From the sequence record PZ379549.1: DNA of 46,532 bases; one strand, given 5' to 3'. Source of the DNA: a phage. Shown piece by piece: positions 2,382-46,532 of the stretch (position 1 is its first letter; each line of letters starts with the position of its first letter). The position numbers and the translations under genes were made by a program. Below the pieces are notes generated by a model. It was not told the origin of the DNA. It did no database searches and saw nothing but the letters and a program-made list of their open reading frames with translations.

Positions 2382-3927
2382 GACGTAGCCTCCTCTACAG
2401 CTTCCTGGAAATACCTGCCCAACCTTGCTTGCACCACGCCAAGAACGCCAGCCGGAGCCTGATTCGAAGCCCCATACTCAAGGTCAGCAGGCGTAATCAA
2501 GCCTGTTAGTTATGTAGATAACACTTTGTCGCTGGTGAATTAGCCACAGCTCGAGCTTGCCTTGCCAGATACCTTTTTGTATGCTCCACCTGTTTTGATC
2601 GTAATCATTCAGAGACTGAGCTGAGCTGGGGAGTTCGCTGTAATCTGCCAGTTAGCCTTAAACCTACCAGTATCAACAGGCGATAAATCCACGATGGCGT
2701 TAGCAGCCTTAATTACCGTGTCGGCAGACAACAATATCAGAGAAGTTATCATCAGCTCTATCAATCCAATCAGCAATAGCTATTCGTCAAAGGTAGCCAA
2801 CACCACCAATATTTCTAGCCATAGGTAGCCACCCTCCTTAGAATTGGTCTGTAAGCCAACTACTAGTTCCTGTTGGTTTGACTGGCCTCGGGTCGACTAC
2901 AGTGTAAGTTTCATCTTCAACTATAATCCTGATAGCCCTGCAAGATTGCGGACTTCAGACAGTGAAAATTCCACGCTTGTCACCAAACTGGATATATTCG
3001 CCATCAATATCTCTGCGTTTTAATCTCCCTCACCAAGCCCCTTGATTGAAATGCAGTTGCCGCCAGCTACAGGAACCTCAACGCCGTCAACGATTTCGAC
3101 ACCATCCTTTACCAGTATTCATCTCGTGAATGTACCATCTGCCATCACTAAAGATAGTTGATGCCCGTGCGCATTAATTGATTCTACTTGGGAGTAATTC
3201 ATTGGCAACCGCACTCACCGCCAGCAGCGGACGTAATCAAGCCAAATCCGCCGCCTTTCTTGCGCAGGAGATTCCTAGTAAAGTGCGGCCCCACGGCGTA
3301 GCTGATCAATGATGACCTTGAGTTTGCGAGGTGGATATCATAAGCTGATAGAAAATTCACCGCTCAGCGGAGTAACTTGCCACCTTCTATGGCCATATAT
3401 CATCCAGCGACTTCATTCTCGCCCTTAAGCGCGCCATCAAGAAAGGCATCATGTGCAGATGTGTATAGTCCGACAGCGCTTTATAAGCATCATGCACCAA
3501 ACTTACTGGTCGCAGATGTATAGACTTAGCTAACTCAAGCCATACGTCCAGCGATTCGTCATCTGGAATATTCTTAAGAGCAGGAACCAGCGACTTGCAT
3601 AAAGGCTAATGCTTGTATCGTTCATAAAACCTCCATACAATAAACGGACGCCGAAGCGCCCTGTTTGGTTATTTGTACTCGTTGACCAGTCTCAGCCTCG
3701 GCAGATGGTTTTCGGTTCTTTGCGCTTATATTCTTGCTAACAACTTCTTGCGACGATTTGTTTGGTTGCCTTGGTGTCACCCTCAACCTGGTGAGTTGAC
3801 CCTCTGCGATTAAACGCTTGAGCCCAGTCGCAAATTACCTCAACCTCGAATGAGTGTCACCAGGCAAATATTTCTCACCTTTGTAAACGATAATCGTGCA
3901 CGCTCCAGTGTGTTCTAAACGAATCAT
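2382..3927 (-). pseudogene. frame-disrupted block of head-tail connector/neck genes (at least 4 genes)
   Basis: No ORF >=60 aa on either strand over about 1.5 kb; good RBS+ATG starts at 3927 (AAGGAG) and 3625 (GGAGG, ATGA overlap with upstream stop) each run into stops within 15-30 codons while adjacent frames continue protein-like sequence. Confidence 0.45.
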
Positions 3928-5674: not shown

Positions 5675-6748
5675 CTAATTTCTTAGGCTGCGTCGGCAGC
5701 TATCAGATTTGTCGGAAGCTGCGGTTGCCTTGCGAACTTCAGCCATTTTATCAGAATCTTTGGCAATGTCGAACGCTGCATCGATGTATGCGTCGGACTT
5801 CTCGGAAACATCAAGGCCGGAAACTTCTTTAACGTATAATACCTTAATGCCTTTAGCATCCAGGCCATCAGTCTTAACACCAGCTTCAGTGGCTACAGTA
5901 ACCAGAGCGGCAAGTGCTTCAGCGTCAGCTTTGGCAGCTTTGACTGCTTTCTCGATTTCAGCGGGCATTGCGTCTACTTTGGCTTTCAGTGCGTCACGCT
6001 CAGCTTCGATGGAATCAACCTTAGCTTTCTGTGCTTCAACAGCGGAGTTAATTTTGGAGATGTGGTCTGCAACCTCTTTAGACACCTCAACTTCAACAGA
6101 GTCAATCTTAATCTTAACTGTCATTTTGTTTTCCTTAGTATTTAAATCAACGTTGTCAGTATACGGGTTTTCTTGCTGCCCGTCCATATTTAGCTTAGCA
6201 ATTCCAGCCCTACCCCTGAAGACCATAGCTAAATGGTTTACCTTAATGTCTCTCTGGATTGCGTCGAACTCTTGCCAGTCAGGGGGTATATCCAAACCCT
6301 GCGTGTTGTCAGTCCTAAGAATGTACTTACCAGTTGCCGGGTCGCCCCAACCTGGAGTTTCATCAAGAACTGCCGAGTAACCTACAGATAATTCCTTAGC
6401 GTTACCTGAGCGAGCCTCGTCAATAGCTTCTTGAGAGTATACGACAATTGGCGCAATTACCGTACTTCCTAGAGCCTCAGCTTTACCAGTTACCGAGCCG
6501 ACCACTACGTCTTTAGCGTTATCGGAGTTTACAAAGACGTGGTCAAGAGTCATTGGCTTACCCTGGTAACTGGCTAGCGACTCCTCTTTGAAGACTTCTT
6601 CTGCTGGCCTGAACTCTCGAACAGTCGAACCATCCTCTGTGAAATAAACCTGCACACCAACCCTTGCTACTACTGGCGTATCGACGAGAAAACCATTCTC
6701 GTCAATGGTGGCTTTGAATGTTGCTGTATCAAAGCGATTCTTATACAT
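5675..6748 (-). CDS. putative prohead protease / scaffold protein
   Basis: N-terminal globular part plus C-terminal coiled-coil (KAKVDSIEAERDALKAKVDAMPAEIEKAVKAAKADAEALAAL); ATG 6748 with GAGGAG RBS preferred over GTG 6763. Confidence 0.45.
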   Translation of the reverse strand: MYKNRFDTATFKATIDENGFLVDTPVVARVGVQVYFTEDGSTVREFRPAEEVFKEESLASYQGKPMTLDHVFVNSDNAKDVVVGSVTGKAEALGSTVIAPIVVYSQEAIDEARSGNAKELSVGYSAVLDETPGWGDPATGKYILRTDNTQGLDIPPDWQEFDAIQRDIKVNHLAMVFRGRAGIAKLNMDGQQENPYTDNVDLNTKENKMTVKIKIDSVEVEVSKEVADHISKINSAVEAQKAKVDSIEAERDALKAKVDAMPAEIEKAVKAAKADAEALAALVTVATEAGVKTDGLDAKGIKVLYVKEVSGLDVSEKSDAYIDAAFDIAKDSDKMAEVRKATAASDKSDSCRRSLRN

Positions 6749-6796: not shown

Positions 6797-7525
6797 TTAT
6801 GACTCCCAATCCGGCACAGCCCAACAACGACAGCCGTATTCCTGACCAGGGAAGAGATCGTTACCGCCCAACCTGAAGCTTAGGCCCTCTTTCTTGAAAT
6901 GGGTCATTCGCTCCCTTTCATCAAGCATGCCGTGCCAAATGTAATGTGTAACACCAGCATCCTCTAGCCTCCTGCGCATGAACGTAGAGTTAATACTGGA
7001 CGTGATGCCTGAGGCTATATTAGCAGTTCTCTTGCGGTAAATCTTGTACCTTTCGTTAATCTTAAGGTAGTCACCACTCTGTATGATTGATGCAGACTGA
7101 ATAAAGTCGTCCTTGATATTGTTGAGTAACTTTTCAACGGACTTATTTGATGTGTAAAGCCACTGGTTTAAATCCGGCTGATACCAATCTTCATCTCCAT
7201 TTATACCGTTAAGTCTCAAGTCCATAACTGACTGGACCGAGCCGCCACCAGTCTTGATTGCCAGCACAAGAAACTGCGATGAATTATACCTGTATATTGA
7301 CGCTCCAATTGCCGGAAGTGTAGCTACAACAGAAGCTATAAGCGCTGCTATGATTGCGTCGAGATAATTATCTTCCTGCTCTAGCTCCTCGGCAGTGTCA
7401 ATCTTAAGCCGCGTAGCTGATTCTTTCATTGCAGATATTAGCTCAGTTACCGCAACGCTAAGGTTGCGGTTTACCTGATTCTCAATTGTCTGCGGGTACT
7501 TCCAGCGGGTCTTCACTGGTTTCAT
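6797..7525 (-). CDS. head morphogenesis protein (SPP1 gp7 / Mu F-like)
   Basis: C-terminal signature WHGMLDERERMTHFKKEG ... PGQEYGCRCW; follows portal. Confidence 0.65.
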   Translation of the reverse strand: MKPVKTRWKYPQTIENQVNRNLSVAVTELISAMKESATRLKIDTAEELEQEDNYLDAIIAALIASVVATLPAIGASIYRYNSSQFLVLAIKTGGGSVQSVMDLRLNGINGDEDWYQPDLNQWLYTSNKSVEKLLNNIKDDFIQSASIIQSGDYLKINERYKIYRKRTANIASGITSSINSTFMRRRLEDAGVTHYIWHGMLDERERMTHFKKEGLSFRLGGNDLFPGQEYGCRCWAVPDWES

Positions 7526-8759
7526 TGATTGTTACCTCTGTCTCAATTGAACCTTCACCAATCTTAACCTCAGGGGCTAATGCGCGCAAGGTATCTCGTG
7601 CTTCGTCTGCATCCATCACGCCGTTAGTGATAAGAGCAGTAATTGAATCAACGTTATTCTTCAGTACTTCAGCGCGGTCTTTCTTCGATTCCTGAGCTAG
7701 AGGGTTAAACTCAACTGACCATTCTTGCTCGGTTGTGACGAACGGGATTAAGAACCCAAGAACTGGAAGTAGCTCTTCGTTACGCTTGCGGTCAATCAAC
7801 TTATGGAATGTCTCTAGCGCTGTGTTTTGGCTAGATGATAACCCGCCAACGTTACGACCTTTGAGAATGATTTCATGGATACCGCTCAGAGCAACAATTC
7901 TGTCGAACTTCTTATCGAGGAATCCATCAATCCCACCAATATCCGAGTTAAGAACGCTGTACTCTTCAGCTTCAGCGTCGATACCAATCGCGCGACCAAC
8001 GCCAGAGTTATCATCAACCTGGGCAAGCCTCAACCTGGCCGCACCAAAACCTTCCGCGTCGTCACACAGTTCAGCAAGGCCTTTAGCCTTCCACACCGCC
8101 TGCTGCTTGCGGCGCAATAACTGAGTTGCCAGTTTCTCACACGTCTGATAATCCTTGATTGATTCAAGCAGGTCAGGAACCAGAACGCTAGCACCCCACC
8201 CGTCATTACCGCGACGCAATGAACTAGGAATCTTCTCGCCATCCATAATGTGAACTCGCGAGTAGTGCACATCATAAAACATGGCGCCACCTTCTGGCGT
8301 GATGCGGTACGTTAATGGCTTACCGAATCGCACATTGCGAGGGTTTTCCTCCTTAGTCTGAACTCTTACCTGGCTACGCTCATAAACGCGAAGTGATTCA
8401 AGTTCCGCGCCTTCACGTACCGGGCTAGTTAGCGCACGATTGTCCTTAGCGATAGCCACAATTGCAGAGCCGCCAAATAACCTCGCCCATGACCATGCGT
8501 CAGAGATTGACTCGTTAACCTTCAGGTAATCCCACCTGGACCAGAATTCACCTTCGTCATCAATACCATCGATATGGAAACCTGCGGCGATTGCTGTCTC
8601 CGGTATGGTGTCGACGATGCGGCGTACAATTGAGTTTGATGCGTACAGTGAATCAGCGAAAGGAGGTGTAAGATACGTGTTGCCAAAGTGCCCGTAAATC
8701 TCGCTACCATCACTGGAGCCACCAAGAAATTGCGTGGCGTATGAATCTGCTTTTACCAT
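7482..8759 (-). CDS. portal protein
   Basis: 425-434 aa ORF between terminase side and head morphogenesis gene; ATG 8759 with GGAG RBS preferred, since track start 8786 lies inside terminator stem. Confidence 0.8.
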   Translation of the reverse strand: MVKADSYATQFLGGSSDGSEIYGHFGNTYLTPPFADSLYASNSIVRRIVDTIPETAIAAGFHIDGIDDEGEFWSRWDYLKVNESISDAWSWARLFGGSAIVAIAKDNRALTSPVREGAELESLRVYERSQVRVQTKEENPRNVRFGKPLTYRITPEGGAMFYDVHYSRVHIMDGEKIPSSLRRGNDGWGASVLVPDLLESIKDYQTCEKLATQLLRRKQQAVWKAKGLAELCDDAEGFGAARLRLAQVDDNSGVGRAIGIDAEAEEYSVLNSDIGGIDGFLDKKFDRIVALSGIHEIILKGRNVGGLSSSQNTALETFHKLIDRKRNEELLPVLGFLIPFVTTEQEWSVEFNPLAQESKKDRAEVLKNNVDSITALITNGVMDADEARDTLRALAPEVKIGEGSIETEVTINETSEDPLEVPADN

Positions 8760-8772
8760 TTTATTTGCTCCA

Positions 8773-8795
8773 ATAAAAAGCCCCATTTAGGGGCT
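8773..8795 (-). terminator. rho-independent terminator between moron and portal
   Basis: Minus-strand RNA GCCCC-UAAAU-GGGGC followed by UUUUUAUUG. Confidence 0.65.
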
Positions 8796-9171: not shown

Positions 9172-9246
9172 TTTTTACTCCTCTCGTTTGCGTGAAGTAA
9201 CTATAAGCCATCCTTGGCGGCACGTCTTTAGCAAAACGTGCTATTT
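9172..9246 (-). promoter_or_regulatory. box-hairpin-(-10)-leader unit upstream of moron
   Basis: Box at 9226-9246 overlapping TerL stop (TAG), hairpin GCCAAGGATGGC, TATAGT, CACGCAAACGAGAGGAG, ATG 9171. Confidence 0.4.
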
Positions 9247-10824
9247 GATGCCAGCGAGGCGCATCATCCTCGATTTAGGGTCTTCTGCAATGTTCAGTAC
9301 CAGGTTTACGGCCATTGTCAAACAGTCTATCTGGTCATCGTGAACATGTGAATCATCTGCCGTGAATGCCGCAATCTCCGTTAGCAAGCCATTAAGCCAA
9401 GTAGCAGACTCCGGAAGGATTACGTTACCAGCTTTAATCTGCGGCAATGCACTCATTACGCGAGTCAGCTTATCGTTATCCGGAACGTACGGCTCGATAG
9501 GCGTTCGCATAACCCTTCCGGCTGATTGAATCAGGCCAATACCAGAGGCTTTCTTCTCGATGATGATTTTACGAAGGATGCCATCTATCTGATTGGATGC
9601 CCTAGCCATCTTCTCGAAATCCAATAACTCAGCCTCGAGCTCAGGAGCTTCAAATTTACCGCGCCGCTGGTCAAGCAGATAAATCTTCCCATCCTTATAA
9701 CCCCATAGCTGCATGACGCTAAAGTCGCTGTAACTTTTGGTTGTCATCGCAGTATCAAGGACCATAAACCTGTAATCGTACTTAGCTGGCGGTCGCAGAG
9801 TGTCGCTAATGCGTTGAAGCCAGTCTACGTTAATCAGGTTGCCGCCAAGTGCTACTGGTTCTTGCTGATACTGGCTAAGGAATGTATAGCTATCAGAATC
9901 CCACATTGCAACTAGGTCGTGAACAGATTCCTTGCCAGGGAAATAGCTATAGTACCTAACACCATCACGCTCAATATATTCGCTTGATAGAACGTCATCA
10001 ATGAATTGCCGCTTAATCCAGTCAGGAAGCGTGTCGACGTAATCCTCAGTTACGAGCGCCGGTATCTTAATCAAGTCGAAGCTAATACCCATACCGCCAT
10101 TCATCATGAACCACGTACTATCATTCACATGAAGGCGCTGTTGGATAGAGATAATCGGCGTCGCCTTTCCTTTTACGGAGCTCGCCCTACGAGAGCGTAT
10201 TGTATTCTTTAGCATCACGTGATTGTTAGCGCGAAAAACAGCAGAAAGCATGTCGGCTGGTTTGTCAAAATCATCTAACAGAACCGCTCCGCTATATGAA
10301 TCCGTTATATATCCACCCCTTGCGCCGGTTATTTGGCCTCCAGCAGCCTTAGATATTGACTCAAACCGAACCTTACCAGACTCATCCAGAACTTGAAGCT
10401 CATCATCCTTGCACGTACCGAACTTGCATGGGAATAACTCCTGGAACTCAACAGACTTAATCAGGTCCCGAACTCGCTTGGAGTTACGCTTAACAAGTGA
10501 GTCGGCAAACGAGATGTTCAGGTTCCTGACCTTCTTTAGCTTAACCATCGAGTAGGCCGGGAAGTGAATTGAAGCTATCTCTGTTTTTCCACTTCCTGGA
10601 GCGATGTTAATGATTGTGTCCTTGCGCTCACCAGCGATAATCTCGTCAATGATTCGACACAGGTATTTGTGATGCCAGTTAGGGATGTATCGCTCGCCCT
10701 GGGTAAGTTGGAACCACACCCGCAAGAATCCCTCGAAACTATGAGTGGATATAGCCTTAACTGCCATCTTTTCTGCTGGCGTCATTTCTTCCCATACTAA
10801 TGTTTCACTCATCCTACTCTCCAA
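9241..10824 (-). CDS. terminase large subunit
   Basis: 527-aa ORF with ATPase and nuclease-like halves; immediately upstream of portal module. Confidence 0.85.
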   Translation of the reverse strand: MESRMSETLVWEEMTPAEKMAVKAISTHSFEGFLRVWFQLTQGERYIPNWHHKYLCRIIDEIIAGERKDTIINIAPGSGKTEIASIHFPAYSMVKLKKVRNLNISFADSLVKRNSKRVRDLIKSVEFQELFPCKFGTCKDDELQVLDESGKVRFESISKAAGGQITGARGGYITDSYSGAVLLDDFDKPADMLSAVFRANNHVMLKNTIRSRRASSVKGKATPIISIQQRLHVNDSTWFMMNGGMGISFDLIKIPALVTEDYVDTLPDWIKRQFIDDVLSSEYIERDGVRYYSYFPGKESVHDLVAMWDSDSYTFLSQYQQEPVALGGNLINVDWLQRISDTLRPPAKYDYRFMVLDTAMTTKSYSDFSVMQLWGYKDGKIYLLDQRRGKFEAPELEAELLDFEKMARASNQIDGILRKIIIEKKASGIGLIQSAGRVMRTPIEPYVPDNDKLTRVMSALPQIKAGNVILPESATWLNGLLTEIAAFTADDSHVHDDQIDCLTMAVNLVLNIAEDPKSRMMRLAGIK

Positions 10825-10828
10825 ACTA

Positions 10829-11353
10829 TTACAGCTTACTAATCACAGACTCCAGCGCTTCCTTCATCGTATCGACGTCGTTAGCTGAAGAGTTGTTGCT
10901 GATGGTAATCTCCTGCGGCTTGTCGATTCCAAGCTCTTTGGAAATCATGCCAGGGTTAATGATGCCAGATGCTGCAAGCTGGTATTTCTGCTCGCGAATC
11001 ACGGAATCAATGAACGCAATCACCTCATCATAACCAGCCGACTTCCTCCATTTCTCGATGGCGCTATGGGTGACACCGCAGTAAAGGCAGAATCCGGTTA
11101 GCGTGAAGACTCGTGGTTTGTGCACCAGGCTCTCTTTTACCACACCCTGGAAGCTGGCTGTCTCGATTGCCTTGATTGCCTGGTTCTCAGCCCATGAGAA
11201 GTATTTCACGGCGAATTCAAATAGCTGTTCGGGTGTCATGCTTCGGTTTTTGGCTAGCGTTGTAATGTCTGAGTACTTTTTATTGTACATGGCTTTAAAG
11301 TTGCCAGAGCGGACCTTTTCTTGCGCCTGACTGGTGAAGTTTTCGTCTTTCAT
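10829..11353 (-). CDS. putative terminase small subunit
   Basis: 174-aa ORF immediately upstream of TerL, AAGGAGG RBS; assignment by position. Confidence 0.5.
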   Translation of the reverse strand: MKDENFTSQAQEKVRSGNFKAMYNKKYSDITTLAKNRSMTPEQLFEFAVKYFSWAENQAIKAIETASFQGVVKESLVHKPRVFTLTGFCLYCGVTHSAIEKWRKSAGYDEVIAFIDSVIREQKYQLAASGIINPGMISKELGIDKPQEITISNNSSANDVDTMKEALESVISKL

Positions 11354-11400
11354 TTTGTTACCTCCTTTGTTTAGAGATGCATTATATCATATAGCAAACG

Positions 11401-11424
11401 AAAAAAAGCCCTCAAGAAGAGGGC
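11401..11424 (-). terminator. rho-independent terminator upstream of TerS
   Basis: Minus-strand RNA GCCCUC-UUCUU-GAGGGC followed by UUUUUUU. Confidence 0.75.
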
Positions 11425-11477
11425 GAAGTATCGAACAACAACGAGAGATATGAAACAAACAGAGAGTAGAACTTCTT

Positions 11478-11666
11478 TTACTTTCGCTCACGAACGTAAG
11501 CTACTAGGAATTTGTGGTAATCCGGGTCGGCACCAGACATTACCTTAACTTTCGCTACTGCTTCCTCTGAGGACTTAGCAGTAACCGACGCGATAAATTC
11601 TTGAGTGCAACTTTTGCAACTACGACCCATTAATCGGATTGAAAGCTTAACATCCCAGAGCTGCAT
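11478..11666 (-). CDS. hypothetical protein
   Basis: 62-aa ORF; may be 3' part of a frame-shifted gene with 11647-11859. Confidence 0.3.
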   Translation of the reverse strand: MQLWDVKLSIRLMGRSCKSCTQEFIASVTAKSSEEAVAKVKVMSGADPDYHKFLVAYVRERK

Positions 11667-11859
11667 TTTTTATCTTCCCGCTCTGATTGCTATAGTTTTG
11701 AGTTTCTCTTTCAAGCTCGAGATAGCCTTTAATATCCGCGCTAACTGAAACCCCGCCAATCACACCCTTTAAGCATTTATGTTCACGGTCAAGTGTTGCG
11801 TTGAATTTTTGGGAAGTGCCGCTTTCAATATCTTTTACGATGATTGTTACTTTTTTCAT
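11647..11859 (-). CDS. hypothetical protein
   Basis: 70-aa ORF downstream of tRNA. Confidence 0.3.
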   Translation of the reverse strand: MKKVTIIVKDIESGTSQKFNATLDREHKCLKGVIGGVSVSADIKGYLELERETQNYSNQSGKIKNAALGC

Positions 11860-11890
11860 TTAATCCCCCAGGATTATTGGTTTCTTAATT

Positions 11891-11966
11891 TGGTGTTCCG
11901 CACTGGACTCGAACCAGTAACTAAGACTTAGGAGGTCTTTGCGTTATCCTGTTACGCCAGCAGAAC
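11891..11966 (-). tRNA. tRNA-Arg (anticodon CCU, reads AGG)
   Basis: Hand-folded 76-nt cloverleaf: acceptor GTTCTGC/GCGGAAC, D-arm GCGT-AACAGGATA-ACGC, anticodon arm AAGAC-CTCCTAA-GTCTT (U33, CCT, A37), variable AGTT, T-arm ACTGG-TTCGAGT-CCAGT, discriminator A, encoded CCA. Confidence 0.8.
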
Positions 11967-12154
11967 AAATCCTTGAGTAGCGATTGCGCTATTGAAGGAT
12001 TGCTGGTTACGCTTCCAGCGTCGAGTTTCTCGACCGATTTCGCCATATACGCTGCTTAGTGAGCTATGGACTTTGTGTTGCGCTCCGTGCGCCGTTGCCA
12101 CTTGGTGGCCTCGTCTGTCTACAGTTGTTAATGTACCAGTCAGGGTTAGATGTG

Positions 12155-12355
12155 TCAACTTACTCTTTCGAATTTCCCATAATTCTGGTCATACGGGTAG
12201 TCAATGCTCACCAATTCGCCATTATCGCTGTAGCAGAATACGTGGCCAGTCTTCGATACCTTTTCGACCTGGTAATCGCATCCATCCATGAAGTCATCAG
12301 ATACCGCCTTTGTGCACTTGATAGCATCGCCTTTCTTAATAATTTTATTCATCAA
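12155..12355 (-). CDS. hypothetical protein
   Basis: 66-aa ORF. Confidence 0.4.
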   Translation of the reverse strand: MMNKIIKKGDAIKCTKAVSDDFMDGCDYQVEKVSKTGHVFCYSDNGELVSIDYPYDQNYGKFERVS

Positions 12356-12543
12356 AACTCCTCAGTTATAAGCATCTTGCCACAATCTTTGCACTCGTAG
12401 AATGAACAGCTTTCACCAACAAATAGACTTTGTTTTGTTGACTCATGGTACTTGTCGTTTAGCGCTTTAATGTCAAAATCGTTAATATTTGATGTGAACA
12501 CGTAAACGTAGCGATGCTTGTGATTGATTTCTTTATTATTCAT
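12352..12543 (-). CDS. hypothetical protein (CxxC motif)
   Basis: ORF 12352-12567 trimmed to internal ATG (MNNKEINH...). Confidence 0.35.
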   Translation of the reverse strand: MNNKEINHKHRYVYVFTSNINDFDIKALNDKYHESTKQSLFVGESCSFYECKDCGKMLITEEF

Positions 12544-22697: not shown

Positions 22698-23171
22698 TTA
22701 TTCTCCGTGAGATTCGCAGTCTTTTGGTAATTCTTTATATTCACAAACTGACATTACAGTATATCCGCAATTCCTTAGGTGACTGATAACATTAGGATTA
22801 TCCTCAAAGATTATCACACTTGCTTTGTCACCATTACACAAATCATTTAGCCACATCTCTTTAATGATATAGTCATTTCTGTTATCCAATCTACTCCTCA
22901 TATATATTCCATCATAATTAATATTATTATACTGAAGCCATTCAAGCGTCATACATTCGACTTCGTCACTTCTTGAAGTCATGATGTAAACTGGCGATAA
23001 CTCAGCTAACGCATTCATCATGTTTATCATTGGAATTATCGGTGAATCTCCAGAACAGGCTCTATTGTAATCACTCCAACTTGAAGTCAAGTGAAGGTCA
23101 CTAGATGGTAAGAGGTGGCTTCTATGTTCATTGTTAGCAATAGTTCCATCAATATCAAACACGTAAATCAT
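22698..23171 (-). CDS. HAD-superfamily phosphatase
   Basis: N-terminal DxDGT motif (VFDIDGT); adjacent and co-oriented with kinase. Confidence 0.55.
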   Translation of the reverse strand: MIYVFDIDGTIANNEHRSHLLPSSDLHLTSSWSDYNRACSGDSPIIPMINMMNALAELSPVYIMTSRSDEVECMTLEWLQYNNINYDGIYMRSRLDNRNDYIIKEMWLNDLCNGDKASVIIFEDNPNVISHLRNCGYTVMSVCEYKELPKDCESHGE

Positions 23172-26263: not shown

Positions 26264-28006
26264 TGTGAGCCATTACCTCATATGAAGCAACGATCCCTGA
26301 CTGGTTCTTTGTTAACCCAATCTTGAAGTCATAAACTCGCAACCAGTCCCCCTTACGATACATTTTTCCTGATAACTTAGCATTCGGGTCTATGAGCATC
26401 TCACCACAGCATCTGCAATTCTTAGCTGCAATATCATTCTTCTCACCGCATCCTTTCTTAATGATAGCTTTGGTCTGTGGGTCCGCTATATCTTCACACA
26501 GTCTAAACTGAAAGAAGTGCTCACAGCGCTTCCAGTCAATTACGTTATTGCAGCGCCTGGCTAATTGAGAGTTCACATAAGAGCATGCCGGACAGATTCT
26601 TGGCTTATCACCACGCTTTCTTGCTGACCTAAATTTCTGGTCTTGTACCTCTTCTATAATTGGGTCGAAGTAAAGTTCAGCCATATCATCAAGCGTTCCA
26701 GCAAAATCAAGAACAACATGGTCATCTTTTACCATTCCAGCTTCTTTGTGCTTCTTCTTAAGGATACGCATACCACGACCAAGCAACTGAATGAGTAGAG
26801 TAATGCTACCAACCTTCCTCAGGATAATGCTTGTATCCCACGGGGGGCAGTTTACGCCAGTTGTGAGGCAACCAATCTGAAATATGAACTTATATTCTCC
26901 GTTGGCTGCCTTCTCAAGTATCTCTCTACGCTTCTTCTCACCAGTGGAGTTGGTAACTATCGCCCAAGTAACACCTTCTAGGAAGTGCGGCTGCCGCCTC
27001 CATCGCAATGCTGTTTGCCAGCGCAAGTTACCAATGCAGCATTCCTTGTTTCCATAAACTTAGCAGCAAATCCCATTATCTTTTGTGTCATCGTTTGGTT
27101 TTCGTGAATCTTTGCAGCCATCGCATCCATTTCTTTCTTGCTGAAGTCCTTAACCCCATCACTTCCATCAGGAGTGAACTCACTAAGGTCGTAGCCCAAA
27201 TCACCAACTTCACCGTAGACAGTAGGAACAACGAACCCCAAGTCAACAAGGTAGCTGGTTGGCACTTGCATTACAGTTTTGCGCCAGAATCCACGGACAT
27301 TTGGGTTACTAACTACAATGTGGTCGTTGTTACGGTACGGGCTGCCAGTCAAACCGAAGATGCGTAGTTCGCGACCATACTTCTCTTTGCAGCGTCTCTT
27401 CATCTCAGTAATGATTAGCGTGTACTGCGCACGACCAGTTCCGAGCAATCCGGTATTCACTCCATCCTTGAAAACCATCTCACCCTTCTTCGTGCTCATC
27501 TGCTCGAATGTTTCCTCGTTCTCTTCAGCTTCTACGATATCCATATGGTCAACCATATGACATTCATCTATCGCAATAACGGCAGGAACATAGTCACCAA
27601 GGCCCTTAAACAAGCCGTTAGCAGCCGTGCCCTCACTAGCCACTATGGTTGGGTAGTAAACTGATTTAACGTTAAGGCCAGCGCAATAGACGCTATTACG
27701 GATGCCGAAGTTACGAAGCTCTTCAGCGTTCTGGCTGATAATTTCTGACTGGCGAGAAAGCACCATGTAAGGAAGCCCAAGCTGTTCCATGCGCTTTCCA
27801 ATCATGGCAAGAATAATTGTCTTACCAGCAGATACAGACAGGTCTGCGATGAATGGGGCCTCGTACTTTCCAATAGCCTTCCCAATTGCATCAAATGTCA
27901 CACACTGGAATGGGTAAGGAGTGATTTCTCCAAACTGGTAATCTCTCTGAATCTGCTTAATCTTCTCTTGATCGAAGTTGGCTACTAAGCGCTCTACTGG
28001 AAGCAT
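26238..28006 (-). CDS. SF2 DEAH-box helicase with C-terminal Cys-rich region, one frame change near 26978-27026
   Basis: N-part ORF 26978-28006 has Walker A SAGKT and DECH; C-part ORF 26238-27026 has motif VI QLLGRGMR; the two overlap in different frames. Confidence 0.65.
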
Positions 28007-37588: not shown

Positions 37589-40500
37589 TTACCACACTCC
37601 AACTACAACCCTTCCACCATTCGGTAAATTAACTGTAATTCCATTATTGTTAATCTGAACAGTGTTGTTGGTTCCGTTAAACGCAAAGTTGCCGTTACTT
37701 GCGTACAGACTACCCCTTACAGTTGCATTGTTAAGTTCCGCACTGCCTGACTTATCAATGGCCCAACCCTGAGAACCAGCCACGTAGTTATTAGATTGAA
37801 TCCGGTTACCAATCTTCGCGTTAGTGATTGAACCATCCTGAATCACTGCGCTTTGAATGAATACCTGATTACCTTCAACTACGAAAGGCAATGACCACTG
37901 ACCGGATCCAGAGCTAATGCCGTTACTGATTGCTAACCTGTTAGCATCAAAGATGACCTGACTACGAACATTGCCATCAGAACCAGTTAGCTCCATACTC
38001 ATGCCAGAACTGTACTCAACGCCATTGTATTTGAGGCCAAGTTTAATCCCGTACTGAGCACCAATTGAATCGGCAGTAACGTAAGTGTCCAACTTCTCAT
38101 TTAACGCAGCCTCATTATCACCTAGCCTTGCAGATAAAGCAGTGTCCGCAGTGGTCCTTGCTTGCGTCTCTTCCGCTAGCGCCGTATCAATCCTTGTCAA
38201 TGAAGCTACAATCTCATCATCAATCTGCGCCTTAAGCTGCGTCAGAGCCTCTACGCGAGCCCTTTCTTCATCGGCGATAAGATTCACAGCCTGAACAAAT
38301 TCGGCCTTCCTCTTGCCGTTTTCCTTCGTCATTCTACGCACGTCACCATCATTAGCCAGGGCGTTCTCAATTATTGATTCCGCTTGCGCCTGAATAGCTC
38401 CGTTTGACTCAATGGCATTCTGTTGGAGATACTTGAACCCATCTGAGTTTTCTATATCAACCTTAATATCACCAATGATTGACGACACATCATCGCTTGC
38501 CATACCCCTTACAAAATCAGTCCATGGTGAGACGTTACCAATCTTGTCAATCAGTCGCGCCCTGTACCAGATGACCTTTCCAGCAGGAAGTGTAGTATGC
38601 CAGTACTCGTAACTCGGGTAAGGCACCAGAGTCAGAAGGCTAGCATTCTCTGGTGTATAAGTACCATCACCATTGTCGGCTACTTGCTGCAATTCAGTGT
38701 ATGACGTATCGGCTGAGTTTTCAGGAAATCCCCACTTAACCCTAATGCCGAATATTTCATCATCTGAAGCGGTGATTACTGTAGGTGAAGAAGGGGTCCC
38801 AATCTTGCCTGTGAGGCTTACTGAAACAATGTCAGACCATGCGGATACGTTTTCAGTATCAGAAACGGCCCTTACGCGAACCTGGTAAATTCCGGCATAG
38901 ATACCTTCAATATCAACCTCTGTGCTTGCTGTGCGCGGCACGTTAATCCAGTTTCCGTTCTCCTTGCGCCACTGTACCGTGTAGGTTTTCGCGTACTGAA
39001 CCTTGTCCCACGTGATTACCATTGTCTCAACTGATAAACCCTGAACAACCTTACTGTAACTGCTAACCTGAACATTCTCGGGTGCCAGTAATGTATCTGG
39101 CTCCACGATTGAAGTTGGCCTGTCCTGAATGTTTACGCCGTAATCAATCTCGTCGTATTTGTTCGGGTCGTACTCAACTGCGGTAATCGTGTAACCAAAC
39201 GCATCATCTCCATCGCTGTCTGCTTTTTGAATACCGGTCACAACATATTGCTGAAGAGCAAGATTTTCCTTATCAATCGCAAATACTGTGTCAGGCTGAG
39301 GAGTAAAGCTAAACGCTGTATTAAGTTGCAGCGTCATACCATCTTCAGATACAGATGCAATGGTCCTGTACTCCGGCATTCCATCAGGCTTGTTTATTAG
39401 AATCCTGTCGCCAGCAGTAGCATCAATCTTAAATGGCACAAAAACTTGCAACCCACTTACTGACTCGATACGACCAGAAAGGTTAAGGGTGTAGTTGCTA
39501 GACCATGCCTGGTCATTAACTGCAATAACCTCACCAATCATTGGAATCATACCTTCCAGACCAGTAGTGAAACTAATAGTCTCGCTGCGAATGTTCGTCT
39601 TTAATAACCAGCGCCCGCGGCGGTTTGCCTCACTCCTGCGAGTACATCCAATAGCTGTAAGGTCGACCGGGTTGTAACCAAAACGCCTTGTTGCCTCTAA
39701 CTCGAATACTGGCTCAACATCCTGTTGGTATGAGTTTTCAACGTCATCAAACTGAACGTTGGCAACCGTGTAAAGTGACTTATCGCTACCAAATGTACGG
39801 TTGAACAATCCATCAACAACGTTGTCATTGGTGAATACGTACGATGGTTGACGCGGCTTATCGACAACAATCCCTATCTGCTCGCCGTCATAGAATGTCA
39901 GCCCACGGAAGATAGAGCAAATATCACGGATTACCTGATATGCTTCAACTTTCTGCTGAATGACAACATCACACAGGTAGCGCGGCTCAACTCCACCCTT
40001 ACCATCTGGAACCATCTGGTCACAGAATTGCGCCGCCTCATACAGACCCCACTTATCAATAGTAATGCCAAGCTCTCGCTGGTCAAGTCCGTAACGCTGA
40101 TTCGTCACCAAGTCGTAAAGAACCCACGCCGGGTTATTGGAATACGCCATCTTAAAGGTGCCGTTCCAGGTTCCGCTGTAAGTCCTTGTCTCTGGGTTGT
40201 AGTTAGTTGGAACGCGAATCAACTTCCACTTCTTCTTGATTGAAATCGTCGGGATTCCGTTAGGGAAGAGGTCAGAACTGAACTCAACGTAAACCAGCGC
40301 TGTAAGTGGGTAGCGGAATTTCGCATCAATTACTTCCTGATAGGTCGTAATTTGCATATTGTTAACCAGCGTCGAACTTTCTGAATCTGCCGTGATCTTA
40401 CGAACCCTCACCAACGCACTCGAGAACTCAGCAGGAAGGTTAACCCTGATACTTCTGTCGTACCCGCTAGTTGTCTTGCCATTAGCTACTCCGCGCGTGT

Positions 40501-41014
40501 ACTCAGTGTATGTAGCGCCATCAACGGACAGGTCAATCGCATACTCGCAAGTGGTACCGTTAAGATCTCCGTTACTTTCCTGATTAATCAGACGAGGCCA
40601 AAACAGCTTAACCCTAATCGCTGATAGCTGGGTGTTATTAACAGCAATGATGTAAGGAGTTGAGTTTTTAATCTCCCTGTTCACTTGCACTTCCGAGTTA
40701 GCACCCTCTAGCCCGGCAATGTAATCCTGACTCTGTGTGCCAGGGCGAAACTCTGCCGTTACACCCTCGTAGTTGTATGTGCCATTCTGGTTCTGTACAG
40801 GAACGTCAGCAAGGTAAAGGTCCTTTAGGGAGAATGAGCTATCAACCTCACCATCAGAAACAGCTAGCAAAACCTTAACCTTGTTTACGGATATCAGGTT
40901 ATCAGGCTGCTCTACAGGTTGGTGCTGCTTTGGCTGTCCGCCCTTACTTCCATAAATCTTAATTTCTTCCGCCATATCACATAGCTCCGCATTTGTTTTG
41001 ACCATTTGTGCCAT
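37589..41014 (-). CDS. host specificity / central tail fiber protein (lambda J-like)
   Basis: 1141-aa ORF at distal end of lambda-like tail module after I, K, L, M. Confidence 0.8.
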   Translation of the reverse strand: MAQMVKTNAELCDMAEEIKIYGSKGGQPKQHQPVEQPDNLISVNKVKVLLAVSDGEVDSSFSLKDLYLADVPVQNQNGTYNYEGVTAEFRPGTQSQDYIAGLEGANSEVQVNREIKNSTPYIIAVNNTQLSAIRVKLFWPRLINQESNGDLNGTTCEYAIDLSVDGATYTEYTRGVANGKTTSGYDRSIRVNLPAEFSSALVRVRKITADSESSTLVNNMQITTYQEVIDAKFRYPLTALVYVEFSSDLFPNGIPTISIKKKWKLIRVPTNYNPETRTYSGTWNGTFKMAYSNNPAWVLYDLVTNQRYGLDQRELGITIDKWGLYEAAQFCDQMVPDGKGGVEPRYLCDVVIQQKVEAYQVIRDICSIFRGLTFYDGEQIGIVVDKPRQPSYVFTNDNVVDGLFNRTFGSDKSLYTVANVQFDDVENSYQQDVEPVFELEATRRFGYNPVDLTAIGCTRRSEANRRGRWLLKTNIRSETISFTTGLEGMIPMIGEVIAVNDQAWSSNYTLNLSGRIESVSGLQVFVPFKIDATAGDRILINKPDGMPEYRTIASVSEDGMTLQLNTAFSFTPQPDTVFAIDKENLALQQYVVTGIQKADSDGDDAFGYTITAVEYDPNKYDEIDYGVNIQDRPTSIVEPDTLLAPENVQVSSYSKVVQGLSVETMVITWDKVQYAKTYTVQWRKENGNWINVPRTASTEVDIEGIYAGIYQVRVRAVSDTENVSAWSDIVSVSLTGKIGTPSSPTVITASDDEIFGIRVKWGFPENSADTSYTELQQVADNGDGTYTPENASLLTLVPYPSYEYWHTTLPAGKVIWYRARLIDKIGNVSPWTDFVRGMASDDVSSIIGDIKVDIENSDGFKYLQQNAIESNGAIQAQAESIIENALANDGDVRRMTKENGKRKAEFVQAVNLIADEERARVEALTQLKAQIDDEIVASLTRIDTALAEETQARTTADTALSARLGDNEAALNEKLDTYVTADSIGAQYGIKLGLKYNGVEYSSGMSMELTGSDGNVRSQVIFDANRLAISNGISSGSGQWSLPFVVEGNQVFIQSAVIQDGSITNAKIGNRIQSNNYVAGSQGWAIDKSGSAELNNATVRGSLYASNGNFAFNGTNNTVQINNNGITVNLPNGGRVVVGVW

Positions 41015-43558: not shown

Positions 43559-46532
43559 TTAGTTGTAACCCCTCAGATAAGCAAAGGCTCTTCCGCCCTG
43601 CTGGAATGACTTGCTGATTTCCTCAGCAACGATAACCTTGACTCCAGATTCTATCGCCTTAGCATCATTTCCGCCACCAATTCCAGAGTTTACGTTAACC
43701 GTCACGCCGCCAACACTGACATTCGTGCCACCAACAACTCCACCATTAGCATAGCCAGAGGGCCCACCAACAGCGCCGCCATTTGCATAACCTCGCATTA
43801 GCTTGTACAGGTTCTTAACGCCAATCCTGCTTGTAGCTTCTTTTGTGAATACAAACTCACCGCGGTGCACAGTTCCAGCAGGTTGATACTTCCCGCCGTC
43901 TCCAGTGTAGCCGCCACCAGCAAAGCCAATTGCTGACTTTATTGACTCAAAGGCACTACCTGCTCCAGTGTCACCACCAAAGCTCTTAATTGTAGATTCA
44001 ATAGCCTTTACCAAAAGTAGCTGAGTTGCAATTTTCGCAATCATTTTCAGTATGTTTGCCGTGAACTCCCTGAAATTAGTCTCTCCAGTGGTTACAAGGT
44101 TTGTAATCTGGTCGGTAATTCCATCAAAAGCTGCGACAGTCAAATCCTTAGCAATTTGGTTGAAGTCAGTGTACTTCTCAGTTAAGTCAGCAAGCGTTGA
44201 AGTTACACCAGCTTGCCAGTCTGACCTTAGGTTATCTTCCTGCCTGTAGTATTCTTTTCTTGCTTCCAGCAGATTTTGGAAATCAACATCATTTACAGAG
44301 CCACCCTTGTTTACCTGATTGGACTCTAGCGCCTGAAGTTCTCCTGCCCTTTGCCGCTCCCTTTCGGATAGACCCGCAGCAAGTGAAACATTCTTCGCCT
44401 CATTGGTAATCTGTATTGTCTTCTTAAGGTTGTCATCAAGTAACTTGTTTGACCTCTCCTGAAGCACAATCTGGTCACCAAGTTCAGCCTTCTGTTTAGC
44501 CTGTTCAAGAATGATATTCTTCTGCGCAAGTAGCTTAGCCTGTGATTTTGTAAGCGTACCATCCGCTTGTCTTTGTTCAAGTATTGCAAACTTCGCTTCT
44601 TCCTGGAATAACTGCTTTCTTTCATTGCTTATTACATCATTTATCGTTCTGTGCTCTTGTAAGACCTTTAACTGAGCCTGAAGTGCAAGAACGCCAGATT
44701 CATAAGATAAAGTTAAATCACTTTCTTCTTTTACAGCCTTTTTCCTCTCACTCCTTGCTTTCTTTATCGCATCATACTCATCGGCAAGAGCCTTCTTCCT
44801 TGCTGCAAACTCCTTATCGGTTGATGCATTATTGCCGCTAAGGTTGGTGTTATTGTTGTTCTCGACATAACCAAGCTCACCCTTCCTGATTCTCGCATCT
44901 CGCTCAGCTATGCTTTTTGCTAACTCCTCATTTTGCTTCTTAGCTGCATCAACAATCTTTTGCTGCTCAGCGATTGCTTCATTGCCTAAATCGCCAAGTC
45001 CAGGTATTGACTGAAGTGTCTTGGTTGCTGCTATTGCAAACTCGCCCAATAGGATATCACCGGAGTTTATTAACGACCTTATCTGCTCAATAGTCCCAGC
45101 AACAACGTCAGTTATTAAGTTAAGCGCCCCAAGCGTCCTTTTGCTTATATCATCCCAAATCTCACTTACAAACTTCCTGAAGCTATTCCATGCGCTCTCA
45201 AGAGGGTTAAGGCTTAGTGCTACGTCTGCTAGCCTGTTTTCCATAACGTTAGCGAATAGCTCAGTAGCTGCGGTTACAGCCTCTGTTTCTCCAGCCGTCT
45301 TCCTGATATTCTCAATGTATTTCAATTGCCCAGACTGAAGGAAGTTGAACTGCTTATCGAGTGCAATCAGACCTTGAATTGGGTCCTTTGTAATCTGATC
45401 AAAGTATCCAAGAATAGTTTTCGAGTCTGTTGATGTTACAGTTGCCCATTGTGCTGTCGCCTTGGTTATCTTATCTATCTGCGTAAGAGTCAGATTACCG
45501 TTTGCTACCAGGCTGTTAGCTATCTCCTGGATAAGTCCGCGCGTGGCTAGTGTTGAACTCTCAATTCCATCAACAACCTGATTTATCTGCGCTGTCGACG
45601 TGATAGTTGAGTTGCCAACCAATGTTATCGTTGATGCTAGTCCGCGAGTGTTCTTGTCAGCCTGATAAGCAGCAACACCAAGAGCGCCGAGGGCCAAGCC
45701 CAAAGTCCCAACAACTGCCGTTAATGGGTTAATGGCTGCCAGTGCGAACCTTGCGGTGTTAGCAATACCACCAAAGCTATCCTTAATCTGCCCACCCTGC
45801 TGAATTGCAATTAGCCAGATTGGGATACCACCAGCTAGAGAGGTTCCGATATCTGTAATCTGCGCTGGAAGCTGTCGAATTGCTTGCTTGTATTGACCGG
45901 CACTAAGCCCAGACTTAACAAAAGCGGAGCTTTGCTTCTGCAATTGTACCGCAGATGCCTCGGCAGCCTTTCCAATCCTGTCGATAATCGGTGCAGCCTG
46001 GTCACCAACTCCTAGCTGAGCAGCCTTAAGCTGAAGAAGTTCAGTCCTTGTCAGGCTTGCTGCATTCGCCTCGTTCTCAAGAGATTGAATGAACTTTTGC
46101 GCTGCTGTTGTTGCTTTCTCTTTATCTATTGATGCCTGTAGTGCAGCCCTGCCTTCTTCGCTAAGAGCGGCTTTAGACCTGTTTAGCTTATTGATTTGAG
46201 TTTCAATAACAGAGCCAAGCCTGAAGAATTCATCATCAGGAACTATCCCGGATTCAAATGCTTTGTCCAAATCTGTTGCTGCTTTCTGCAACTTCAGGAA
46301 TTTAGCAGCGGTTGGGTCTATGGCTTGCTGAAGTGATGCGAAAGATTTGCGCTGCTCCTCAAGCTGCCTTGCAGTGTCCCTTGCTTGAGTCTTGGCTACA
46401 AGTTCGGCGTTGACGAAGCTATTAATGCCTGTTGCAGCTTGCTCGTTTGCTTGCCTGAATTTCTGTAAGGATTGCGTACCCTTATCGACCTGAGCTACGT
46501 CGACGGCTAGCGTGATACCAGCAATTTCGTTA
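43559..46532 (-). CDS. tail tape measure protein, 5' end runs off window
   Basis: Long alpha-helical Ala/Gln/Lys-rich ORF; track start 46291 is TTG; hand translation shows frame open from 46291 to 46532. Confidence 0.8.
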   Translation of the reverse strand, partial: NEIAGITLAVDVAQVDKGTQSLQKFRQANEQAATGINSFVNAELVAKTQARDTARQLEEQRKSFASLQQAIDPTAAKFLKLQKAATDLDKAFESGIVPDDEFFRLGSVIETQINKLNRSKAALSEEGRAALQASIDKEKATTAAQKFIQSLENEANAASLTRTELLQLKAAQLGVGDQAAPIIDRIGKAAEASAVQLQKQSSAFVKSGLSAGQYKQAIRQLPAQITDIGTSLAGGIPIWLIAIQQGGQIKDSFGGIANTARFALAAINPLTAVVGTLGLALGALGVAAYQADKNTRGLASTITLVGNSTITSTAQINQVVDGIESSTLATRGLIQEIANSLVANGNLTLTQIDKITKATAQWATVTSTDSKTILGYFDQITKDPIQGLIALDKQFNFLQSGQLKYIENIRKTAGETEAVTAATELFANVMENRLADVALSLNPLESAWNSFRKFVSEIWDDISKRTLGALNLITDVVAGTIEQIRSLINSGDILLGEFAIAATKTLQSIPGLGDLGNEAIAEQQKIVDAAKKQNEELAKSIAERDARIRKGELGYVENNNNTNLSGNNASTDKEFAARKKALADEYDAIKKARSERKKAVKEESDLTLSYESGVLALQAQLKVLQEHRTINDVISNERKQLFQEEAKFAILEQRQADGTLTKSQAKLLAQKNIILEQAKQKAELGDQIVLQERSNKLLDDNLKKTIQITNEAKNVSLAAGLSERERQRAGELQALESNQVNKGGSVNDVDFQNLLEARKEYYRQEDNLRSDWQAGVTSTLADLTEKYTDFNQIAKDLTVAAFDGITDQITNLVTTGETNFREFTANILKMIAKIATQLLLVKAIESTIKSFGGDTGAGSAFESIKSAIGFAGGGYTGDGGKYQPAGTVHRGEFVFTKEATSRIGVKNLYKLMRGYANGGAVGGPSGYANGGVVGGTNVSVGGVTVNVNSGIGGGNDAKAIESGVKVIVAEEISKSFQQGGRAFAYLRGYN

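Follow-up and report, generated by a model that had tools for sequence, protein, structure and literature searches.

A tRNA-Arg(CCU) gene in a T1/Rtp-like coliphage and its probable role in AGG decoding for late genes

Introduction

The tRNA-Arg of T1-like coliphages is already known, with publications from 2012 onwards. An arginyl-tRNA for the rare codon AGG was described in Rogue1 and JK06 (Kropinski et al., 2012; PMC3496638), and AHP24, AHS24, AKS96 and AHP42 were each listed with "1 arginyl-tRNA" (Niu et al., 2014; PMC4070988). The paper on TLS makes no mention of a tRNA. T5 is likewise a virulent coliphage with tRNAs of its own, and two reports document that these neutralize tRNA-cleaving defences, tRNA-Lys acting against PARIS (PMC11464382) and tRNA-Tyr against retron effectors (PMC11555353).

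Here we describe a tRNA-Arg(CCU) locus in sequence record PZ379549.1, a stretch of 46,532 nucleotides that we refer to as the window, and compare it with the corresponding loci of related phages and with the host genes argW and argU.

Results

Genome context of the tRNA

The sequence identifies the window as a T1/Rtp-like coliphage of the family Drexlerviridae. About 75% of it aligns with Rtp and JeanPiccard (Braunvirinae) at ∼75% identity, 55% aligns with Rogue1 at 71.5%, and 16% with T1. Around the tRNA locus the nearest public records are AN_ECEAS and ES (98.9%). None of the complete relatives T1, Rtp, Rogue1, JeanPiccard, ESCO41 and BUCT-XGG-1 has an annotated integrase. Using ARAGORN, we found a single tRNA in the 46,532-base window, a minus-strand tRNA-Arg (anticodon cct) that spans 11891-11966. 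These are exactly the coordinates at which a first-pass annotation of the sequence had placed a 76-nt cloverleaf. That annotation had also put a small-ORF cluster on one side of the gene and the packaging genes on the other, and the ORF list agrees: in minus-strand order the cluster lies upstream of the tRNA, and two small ORFs, terS, terL and the portal gene follow downstream. The tRNA and the packaging genes are:

11891..11966, minus strand: tRNA-Arg(CCU), 76 nt, CCA encoded (ARAGORN, Rfam RF00005, MFE fold, covariation)
10829..11353, minus strand: terS, terminase small subunit, first late gene 3′ of the tRNA-containing unit (Pfam GP3_package, E 1.2e-12), 68% amino acid identity to Rtp terS
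9241..10824, minus strand: terL, terminase large subunit, an AGG client (AGG 9, AGA 0)
7482-8786, minus strand: portal, the gene downstream of terL

The tRNA structure is under selection

The Rfam tRNA model RF00005 matched positions 11894-11966 (minus strand) over its full length with 58.9 bits, well above the gathering score of 29 (E = 2.6e-10), and no other Rfam family passed its threshold anywhere in the window. The MFE fold of the 76 nt is an exact cloverleaf of −21.8 kcal/mol with a 7-bp acceptor stem, a 4-bp D stem, a 5-bp anticodon stem, a 4-nt variable loop and a 5-bp T stem. The anticodon loop reads CUCCUAA (U33, C34-C35-U36, A37), the T-loop is the 7-nt UUCGAGU, the discriminator is A73 and the CCA end is encoded in the gene; each of the features named in the first-pass annotation (CCU, U33, A37, T-loop TTCGAGT, discriminator A, encoded CCA) is thus present in the sequence. 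The thermodynamic z-score of the fold is only −1.6, and the weight therefore rests on the covariance-model score and on comparative data.

For the comparative analysis we aligned 12 homologues, of which 11 are distinct, with 78–97% identity. Across the 11 distinct sequences 98.3% of the stem cells hold standard pairs, as opposed to 26–48% in controls in which the 3′ partners were slid by 1–3 columns. Six pairs have changed on both sides, for instance U2-A71 to C2-G71 and A27-U43 to G27-C43, and the observed covariation score was reached by none of 500 shuffles. The high pairing relative to the slid controls, together with the six two-sided changes, leads us to conclude that the structure is under selection and does not represent a chance match. 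The nucleotides engaged in tertiary interactions (U8, A14, G18-G19, A21, U33, G53-U54-U55-C56, A58 and C61) are all present and are invariant in the 12-sequence alignment. By every sequence and structure measure applied, the tRNA is a bacterial-type elongator (RF00005).

Arginine identity for the E. coli arginyl-tRNA synthetase (ArgRS) is set by A20, C35, U36 or G36, and A73 or G73. All of these are found in the window tRNA, as A20 (in the D-loop AACAGGAUA), C35, U36 and A73, and position 73 is A or G only among the homologues. On the basis of these nucleotides it would be accepted by E. coli ArgRS as a tRNA-Arg.

The tRNA is widespread among T1-like phages

With the 76-nt tRNA as query we obtained matches in 121 phage records, of which 103 cover at least 80% of the tRNA and count as full-length. 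The full-length homologues span Rogunavirinae, Braunvirinae and Nouzillyvirus. Identities to the window tRNA are as follows:

100%: AN_ECEAS, ES, IMM-001
96–97%: JK06, Rogue1, AKS96, C119, phiKP26, TR1-3
92–95%: Sf12, phiEB49, AHP24, AHS24, Sd1
82–84%: Phleasolo, IME253, CEB_EC3a, JeanPiccard, the Veterinaerplatzvirus series

Many of the matching records carry a tRNA-Arg annotation. It is missing from the nearest relatives AN_ECEAS, ES and IMM-001, the last of which has a hypothetical protein placed over the tRNA. This protein and Rogue1_0013, which both cover the tRNA/leader region, are probably over-calls. In the annotated regions of 12 relatives the position of the tRNA is syntenic: it follows a promoter and a leader and precedes the small ORFs and terS. 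ARAGORN found no tRNA in T1. The first-pass annotation had regarded tRNA genes as atypical of T1-like phages; this is true of T1 only and is wrong for the group, since the tRNA is already published (2012 and 2014) and widely annotated.

Relationship to phage and host tRNAs

The closest described relatives are the tRNA-Arg(CCU) genes of the Rogunavirus phages Rogue1, JK06 and AKS96, with 96–97% identity over 76 nt (AHP24, 92%). They share with the window tRNA the anticodon, the place before the small ORFs and terS, and the type of promoter and leader. The window differs from them in its backbone, which is nearer to Braunvirinae, and in its leader, where the 5′ hairpins are of Braunvirinae type and one more hairpin (H6 below) precedes the tRNA.

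Homologous tRNAs with anticodon UCU occupy the same slot, behind the same leader, in Rtp, JeanPiccard, CEB_EC3a, 12210I, DTL, IME253 and ESCO41. Their identity to the window tRNA is 78–82%, which is also the range for the Rtp and JeanPiccard forms. They have the same T arm, and their acceptor stem differs only by the compensated change of U2-A71 to C2-G71. Unlike the window tRNA they are 77–78 nt long, read AGA (and AGG by wobble) and have argU-like D and anticodon arms.

The host CCU tRNA, argW (MG1655), resembles the window tRNA in its anticodon, 7-nt anticodon loop, 4-nt variable loop, A73 and encoded CCA, but the identity is only 64%. The host UCU tRNA, argU, is 61% identical to the window's CCU form and differs from it in anticodon, anticodon stem and D arm. 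A recent capture of host argW was considered and ruled out, given this identity and the absence of any blastn match of the tRNA (E ≤ 0.01) in 5,426 complete E. coli genomes. The phage UCU forms, on the other hand, are 76–82% identical to argU and have the whole anticodon stem-loop ACGAC-CUUCUAA-GUCGU in common with it, which points to an argU-like origin of the phage tRNA lineage. The simplest reading of these sequences would be a single argU-like phage lineage with anticodon switches between UCU and CCU in its history.

The CCU allele is found in Rogunavirinae, in the Braunvirinae-like lineage of the window and in Nouzillyvirus BUCT-XGG-1, and the UCU allele in Braunvirinae and in Nouzillyvirus ESCO41. 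The window locus itself is a mosaic, as the 5′ half of its leader and the downstream ORF are Braunvirinae-like and its tRNA is the Rogunavirus-type allele. Such a mosaic, and alleles on different backbones, suggest that the tRNA acts as a cassette that moves by recombination. Other tRNAs are gained and lost at this slot as well, with a tRNA-Val(AAC) in phiEB49, a tRNA-Trp in Sd1 and a 93-nt tRNA-like remnant in Phleasolo.

A conserved promoter-like site and a structured leader precede the tRNA

A consensus scan located a σ70-type promoter-like site ∼165 nt upstream of the tRNA, with 10 of 12 consensus matches and the TG of an extended −10. Promoter-like sites are about as many in shuffled sequence as in this region, so it is conservation and not the scan that carries weight: the −35/−10 pair is kept with its 17-nt spacing at each of the 17 distinct homologous loci, and T1 has it too. 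The elements of the unit, apart from the tRNA, are:

12130..12158, minus strand: σ70-type promoter-like site (TTGACA, 17 nt, TACATT, extended −10 TG)
11967..12123, minus strand: structured 5′ leader of ∼157 nt, tandem hairpins, conserved across subfamilies
H1 12110-12097, H2 12092-12080, H3 12069-12043, minus strand: leader hairpins from the fold
H4 12034-12020, H5 12019-12002, H6 12001-11968, minus strand: leader hairpins from the fold
11647..11859, minus strand: 70-aa ORF directly 3′ of the tRNA (phrog_16862, E 1.8e-8, unknown function)
11478..11666, minus strand: 62-aa ORF, the final gene in the unit (phrog_2919, unknown function, E 5e-28)
11401..11424, minus strand: terminator-like hairpin GCCCTC-TTCTT-GAGGGC with a T run, from a scan, between the 62-aa ORF and terS

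The leader folds into five or six tandem hairpins with −48.4 kcal/mol (z = −2.79), and the T1 leader shows the same hairpin architecture when folded. RNAalifold returned no structure for the whole L-INS-i leader alignment, because variable insertions misalign the hairpins, and MAFFT did not register the 5′ arm of H5, as the loop lengths differ. We therefore checked stem complementarity by explicit reverse complements in each sequence. The stems vary by lineage yet remain complementary:

H5: GCTGG/CCAGC, CCCGC/GCGGG, CCCGG/CCGGG, GCCGG/CCGGC; in T1 GCCGC/GCGGC; the loop ends in CGTAA or GGTAA
H2: GCGC/GCGC, CATC/GATG, CGAT/GTCG, GCGG/CCGC
H4: CGAG/CTCG, GAGG/CCTC, GAGC/GCTC, AGGC/GCCT

The leader matched no Rfam family. 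A permissive Rfam scan of 11400-12400 for a second RNA family gave the tRNA and "sar" with 19.3 bits (threshold 43; E 0.6), which we took as chance. Two ORFs in the leader, 11921-12046 and 11952-12158, were rejected as genes, as they overlap the tRNA and the leader indels are not multiples of three.

The 70-aa ORF, for which no Pfam hit was found, has a ribosome binding site (RBS), GGGGGA at 11869-11864, 21 nt after the tRNA. Terminators are annotated at the place equivalent to that of the terminator-like hairpin in T1 (8322-8344) and in EC3a. In T1 there is no tRNA, and the leader is followed directly by the RBS of ST57. Hence the unit can exist without the tRNA, which was either inserted into it or lost from it in T1. 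The window's unit of leader, tRNA, ORFs and terminator matches the "transcripton" organization of the T1 late region (PMC11447400), the only description found in the literature on late transcription and antitermination in T1. The leader appears to be the only element of the locus that is undescribed.

AGG usage is high in late genes and tends to follow the anticodon

E. coli has one gene for an AGG decoder, argW, and the argW tRNA is among the least abundant tRNAs of the host. To compare codon usage we applied the same crude caller to each genome (greedy longest ORFs of at least 100 aa), with 50 kb of E. coli MG1655 as the host sample. Frequencies per 1000 codons were:

Window (CCU): AGG 12.5–12.8, AGA 6.6–7.3 (the higher values with a looser overlap cut-off)
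Rogue1 (CCU): AGG 12.4, AGA 7.4–7.7
Rtp (UCU): AGG 8.6, AGA 11.7
JeanPiccard (UCU): AGG 8.5, AGA 11.4
T1 (no tRNA): AGG 5.0, AGA 7.1
E. coli MG1655, 50 kb (host): AGG 0.7, AGA 2.2

AGG is indeed rare in the host sample, as the first-pass annotation had it, and the phage uses it ∼18 times as often. It makes up ∼27% of the Arg codons in window ORFs of at least 100 aa and 1.2% in the host sample. To sort the window genes into late and early we mapped Rtp proteins onto them. Structural and packaging genes have 15.8 AGG per 1000 codons and replication/early genes 4.8 at equal total Arg, a 3.3-fold enrichment (odds ratio 3.3, p = 2e-6). The main AGG clients are:

37589..41014, minus strand: J-like tail-tip protein, AGG 21–22, AGA 2
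43559..46291, minus strand: tape-measure protein, AGG 23, AGA 6

The supplementation of late translation proposed in the first-pass annotation is in agreement with these values, and a heavy late-gene demand for AGG that the tRNA would serve fits the codon counts. Tandem AGR codons were considered as strong stall sites and dismissed, as only three occur in eight large genes, which is not notable.

The preference between AGG and AGA differs between the CCU phages (window, Rogue1) and the UCU phages, Rtp and JeanPiccard, which prefer AGA (Fisher p ∼1e-5, from few, phylogenetically related genomes with crude gene calls). With a looser overlap cut-off the two UCU phages have 11.4–11.9 AGA and 8.5–8.9 AGG per 1000. 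We also aligned reciprocal-best orthologues and counted codon switches where an Arg residue is conserved:

Window (CCU) to Rtp (UCU): AGG to AGA 32, AGA to AGG 7 (p = 7e-5)
Window (CCU) to JeanPiccard (UCU): AGG to AGA 35, AGA to AGG 9 (p = 1e-4)
Window to Rogue1 (both CCU, control): AGG to AGA 15, AGA to AGG 12 (n.s.)
Rtp to JeanPiccard (both UCU, control): AGG to AGA 18, AGA to AGG 16 (n.s.)

The clearest case is the J-like protein, whose Rtp orthologue has 5 AGG and 20 AGA at 83% amino acid identity.

A universal rule by which the anticodon sets the codon bias is ruled out by several observations. Nouzillyvirus BUCT-XGG-1 (CCU) and ESCO41 (UCU), at 85% amino acid identity, showed no codon difference (AGG 6.2 and 6.7, AGA 6.8 and 7.3 per 1000; switches 2:5). 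Partial genomes are mixed, with Sf12, Sd1 and phiKP26 being AGG-biased and the CCU phages phiEB49 and e4/1c not, and an unrelated group of ∼46-kb IMG/VR contigs has a CCU tRNA but AGA-rich genes. The link between anticodon and codon bias thus appears as a tendency, confined to AGR-rich lineages.

The AGG load of T1, which lacks a tRNA, is the lowest in the family, as tabulated above. T1 copes with ∼12 AGR codons per 1000, which suggests that the tRNA is helpful but not essential; in the window phage, too, it is probably beneficial rather than essential.

Discussion

We consider it probable that the window encodes a functional phage elongator tRNA-Arg(CCU) that supplements AGG decoding for late genes. 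What the sequences show is the gene itself, its conservation and syntenic place, a structure under selection, the nucleotides for ArgRS identity, the codon usage and a promoter and leader conserved in sequence; transcription, processing, charging and a benefit to the phage are what we infer. Host RNA polymerase would transcribe the leader, the tRNA and the two small ORFs from the conserved σ70-type promoter. Host enzymes would then excise the tRNA, with RNase P acting at the 5′ end and endo- and exonucleases at the 3′ end; addition of CCA would not be needed. Charged with arginine by host ArgRS, the tRNA would raise the supply of AGG decoders beyond that from the single E. coli gene argW, and would thereby speed or safeguard late protein synthesis. 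That AGG stands at ∼18 times the host level, mainly in late structural and packaging genes, is what leads us to expect that an extra tRNA aids late protein synthesis. The published interpretation for Rogue1 agrees with this AGG-decoding reading (PMC3496638).

The first-pass annotation had offered a second role alongside AGG supplementation, the replacement of a host tRNA targeted by an anticodon nuclease. In such a counter-defence, a nuclease-resistant phage tRNA would stand in for a host tRNA-Arg that is cut or depleted by colicin D-, PrrC- or Schlafen-like effectors or by effectors of the PARIS/retron type. The T5 tRNAs set a precedent. For E. coli, the tRNA-Arg-cleaving colicin D was put forward as a candidate source of such pressure (PMC10264068). 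The tRNA body, being only 64% identical to argW, could differ enough to alter nuclease recognition. Polynucleotide kinase genes occur in the family (T1 ST64, Rtp rtp4), the window has a PNKP phosphatase domain at 22704-23168, and the Rtp annotation includes an Stp-like "PrrC activator"; as weak context, these genes hint that tRNA damage matters to these phages. However, the anticodon loop CUCCUAA and G39 are identical to those of host argW, just as the stem-loop of the UCU homologues equals that of argU. The loop-mutation signature of nuclease evasion, that is, differences in the anticodon loop from the host isoacceptor (van den Berg et al., 2023; PMC10264068), is therefore absent here. A literature search found no phage-defence nuclease specific for tRNA-Arg, and counter-defence predicts neither the enrichment of AGG in late genes nor AGG/AGA switching that follows the anticodon. 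Unlike T5, the window has a single tRNA with a host-identical anticodon loop and no known cognate nuclease, and in contrast to the T5 case it is the codon statistics that appear to explain its presence. We therefore regard counter-defence as improbable; of the two roles first suggested, AGG supplementation is well supported and nuclease replacement is not.

Two further explanations do without a benefit from decoding, or make it secondary, and we find both highly improbable. The tRNA could act mainly as an RNase P/RNase E cleavage signal between leader and mRNA. Its place between the conserved leader and the closely following RBS of the next ORF would suit such punctuation, and so would the extra or degenerate tRNA-like elements in the slot of relatives. 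Yet promoter, leader and downstream ORFs all recur in T1, where the tRNA is missing, so cleavage is not required there, and punctuation has no need of conserved ArgRS identity nucleotides and a conserved anticodon loop, nor of a codon usage that follows the anticodon in AGR-rich lineages. The other explanation takes the tRNA for a non-functional relic, carried along as T1-like phages recombine with one another. It could account for the Rogunavirus-type tRNA between Braunvirinae-like flanks, for the swapping of CCU and UCU between close relatives with no change in codons, and for the missing gene in T1. A relic would hardly be expected, though, to keep 98.3% of its stem pairs, with six compensatory pairs, among homologues of 78–97% identity, to retain invariant canonical tertiary and identity positions, and to persist in more than 100 genomes of three or more subfamilies.

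Beyond the supply of AGG decoders to late genes, which remains our preferred reading, we put forward a tentative and rather unlikely idea on the unit as a whole. In it, the tRNA would be an exchangeable cassette within an undescribed, family-wide cis-acting RNA unit, comprising the σ70-type promoter and a ∼130–245-nt leader of 5–6 covarying hairpins. CCU and UCU alleles would be swapped in this unit, and the AGG/AGA usage of the late genes would then drift to the resident anticodon. Since it lies just upstream of the terminator-rich late region, the leader could be a new regulatory RNA, possibly a put-like processive antiterminator or a platform for processing or stability. The put-like role is speculation, prompted by the many terminators annotated in the late region.

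The tRNA-Arg is annotated in dozens of GenBank records, and finding it once more matters little in itself. What is modestly new is the argU-like, anticodon-switched origin suggested above, the cassette-like exchange of alleles, a codon usage that tracks the anticodon with exceptions, and the conserved structured leader. T1-like phages contaminate E. coli production strains, in which AGG decoding capacity is a bottleneck. Of practical value is that the tRNA is missing from the annotations of AN_ECEAS, ES and IMM-001. With homologous tRNAs that carry either CCU or UCU, and with reversals of AGG and AGA such as that in the J-like gene, the family would be a compact natural system in which to study the co-evolution of a phage's codon usage with the anticodon of its own tRNA.

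Promoter and leader upstream of the tRNA gene

In all relatives the tRNA gene is preceded by a conserved sigma-70-type promoter, followed by a structured leader of ~130–245 nt. The leader consists of five or six hairpins, the stems of which covary between lineages. In phage T1 the equivalent unit is found at a locus from which the tRNA is absent.

Window 11967–12158 (-): sigma-70-type promoter and structured non-coding leader, preceding the tRNA
T1 (locus L049) 7588–7750: equivalent promoter and leader unit, tRNA absent

The leader matched no Rfam family, and the unit is without annotation in all public records inspected. One could speculate that it acts as a put-like antiterminator or as a processing platform.

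Mechanical ORF calling places reading frames of 41 and 68 aa over the tRNA and leader (window 11921–12046 and 11952–12158, both on the minus strand). Public records contain similar calls: a hypothetical protein is annotated across the tRNA of IMM-001 (MF630922 4427–4502), and the Rogue1 record places a 40-aa CDS within the leader. In the AN_ECEAS and ES records the tRNA is wholly unannotated. These calls and missing tRNA features in public records are probably annotation errors.

A sar RNA match at window 11557–11612 (+) scored 19.3 bits against an Rfam gathering score of 43 (E 0.6). This sub-threshold hit falls within a 62-aa ORF on the opposite strand and is most likely a chance match.

Other tRNA genes, polynucleotide kinase and endonuclease genes

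In relatives, the slot occupied by the tRNA-Arg also houses additional tRNA genes or their remnants.

phiEB49 (L007) 1578–1654: tRNA-Val(AAC)
Sd1 (L024) 5966–6039 (-): tRNA-Trp(CCA), between the leader and the tRNA-Arg
Phleasolo (L004) 3091–3183: tRNA-like element, 93 nt long, whose anticodon loop is abnormal
EC3a (L010), just downstream of 1576: sequence resembling the Phleasolo element

An ORF with a PNKP HAD (polynucleotide kinase/phosphatase) domain lies at window 22704–23168 (-) (Pfam E 1.1e-14; phrog_415 E 4.6e-48). Polynucleotide kinase is also encoded by T1, Rtp, ESCO41 and BUCT-XGG-1, and the Rtp record describes rtp6 as a PrrC activator of the Stp-like type. All this could be linked to tRNA repair. 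An HNH or homing endonuclease gene separates terS from terL in AN_ECEAS (L001 4206–4682), Rtp (L050 6388–6864) and JeanPiccard (L052 576–1052). This gene is absent from the window, where terS directly adjoins terL (10824–10829).

Codon usage and anticodon alleles

Comparison with Rtp proteins by tblastn showed that several conserved window genes are interrupted by frame changes or in-frame stops.

Window 2487–3596: affected head-tail genes
Window ~4137: disrupted major capsid gene
Window ~20004 and 20243: disrupted helicase gene
Window ~25897: disrupted VRR-NUC gene
Window ~26978–27002: disrupted helicase gene

The disrupted genes are presumably essential. In the same search the rtp29–31 homologues showed only 35–39% identity. 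The pattern resembles assembly indels more than a biological feature, and it leaves slightly fewer genes for counting codons.

A second tRNA-Arg(CCU) group (ACTCTGTTAGCTCAAC...), with 75% identity to the window tRNA, was found in IMG/VR contigs of ~22–47 kb (L018, L020, L027, L029, L032, L033 and L048). It lacks the Drexlerviridae leader. These genomes are AGA-rich (AGG 3 and AGA 11–20 per 1000 codons), and the group thus breaks the correspondence of codon bias with anticodon.

Within Drexlerviridae a single homologous tRNA lineage carries either anticodon, depending on the phage: CCU in the window, L002, L004–L008 and L012, and UCU in L003, L009–L011 and L050. The UCU forms share the entire anticodon stem-loop with the host argU. 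Both alleles occur in Nouzillyvirus, CCU in BUCT-XGG-1 and UCU in ESCO41, which suggests that the tRNA-Arg is exchanged as a cassette by recombination.
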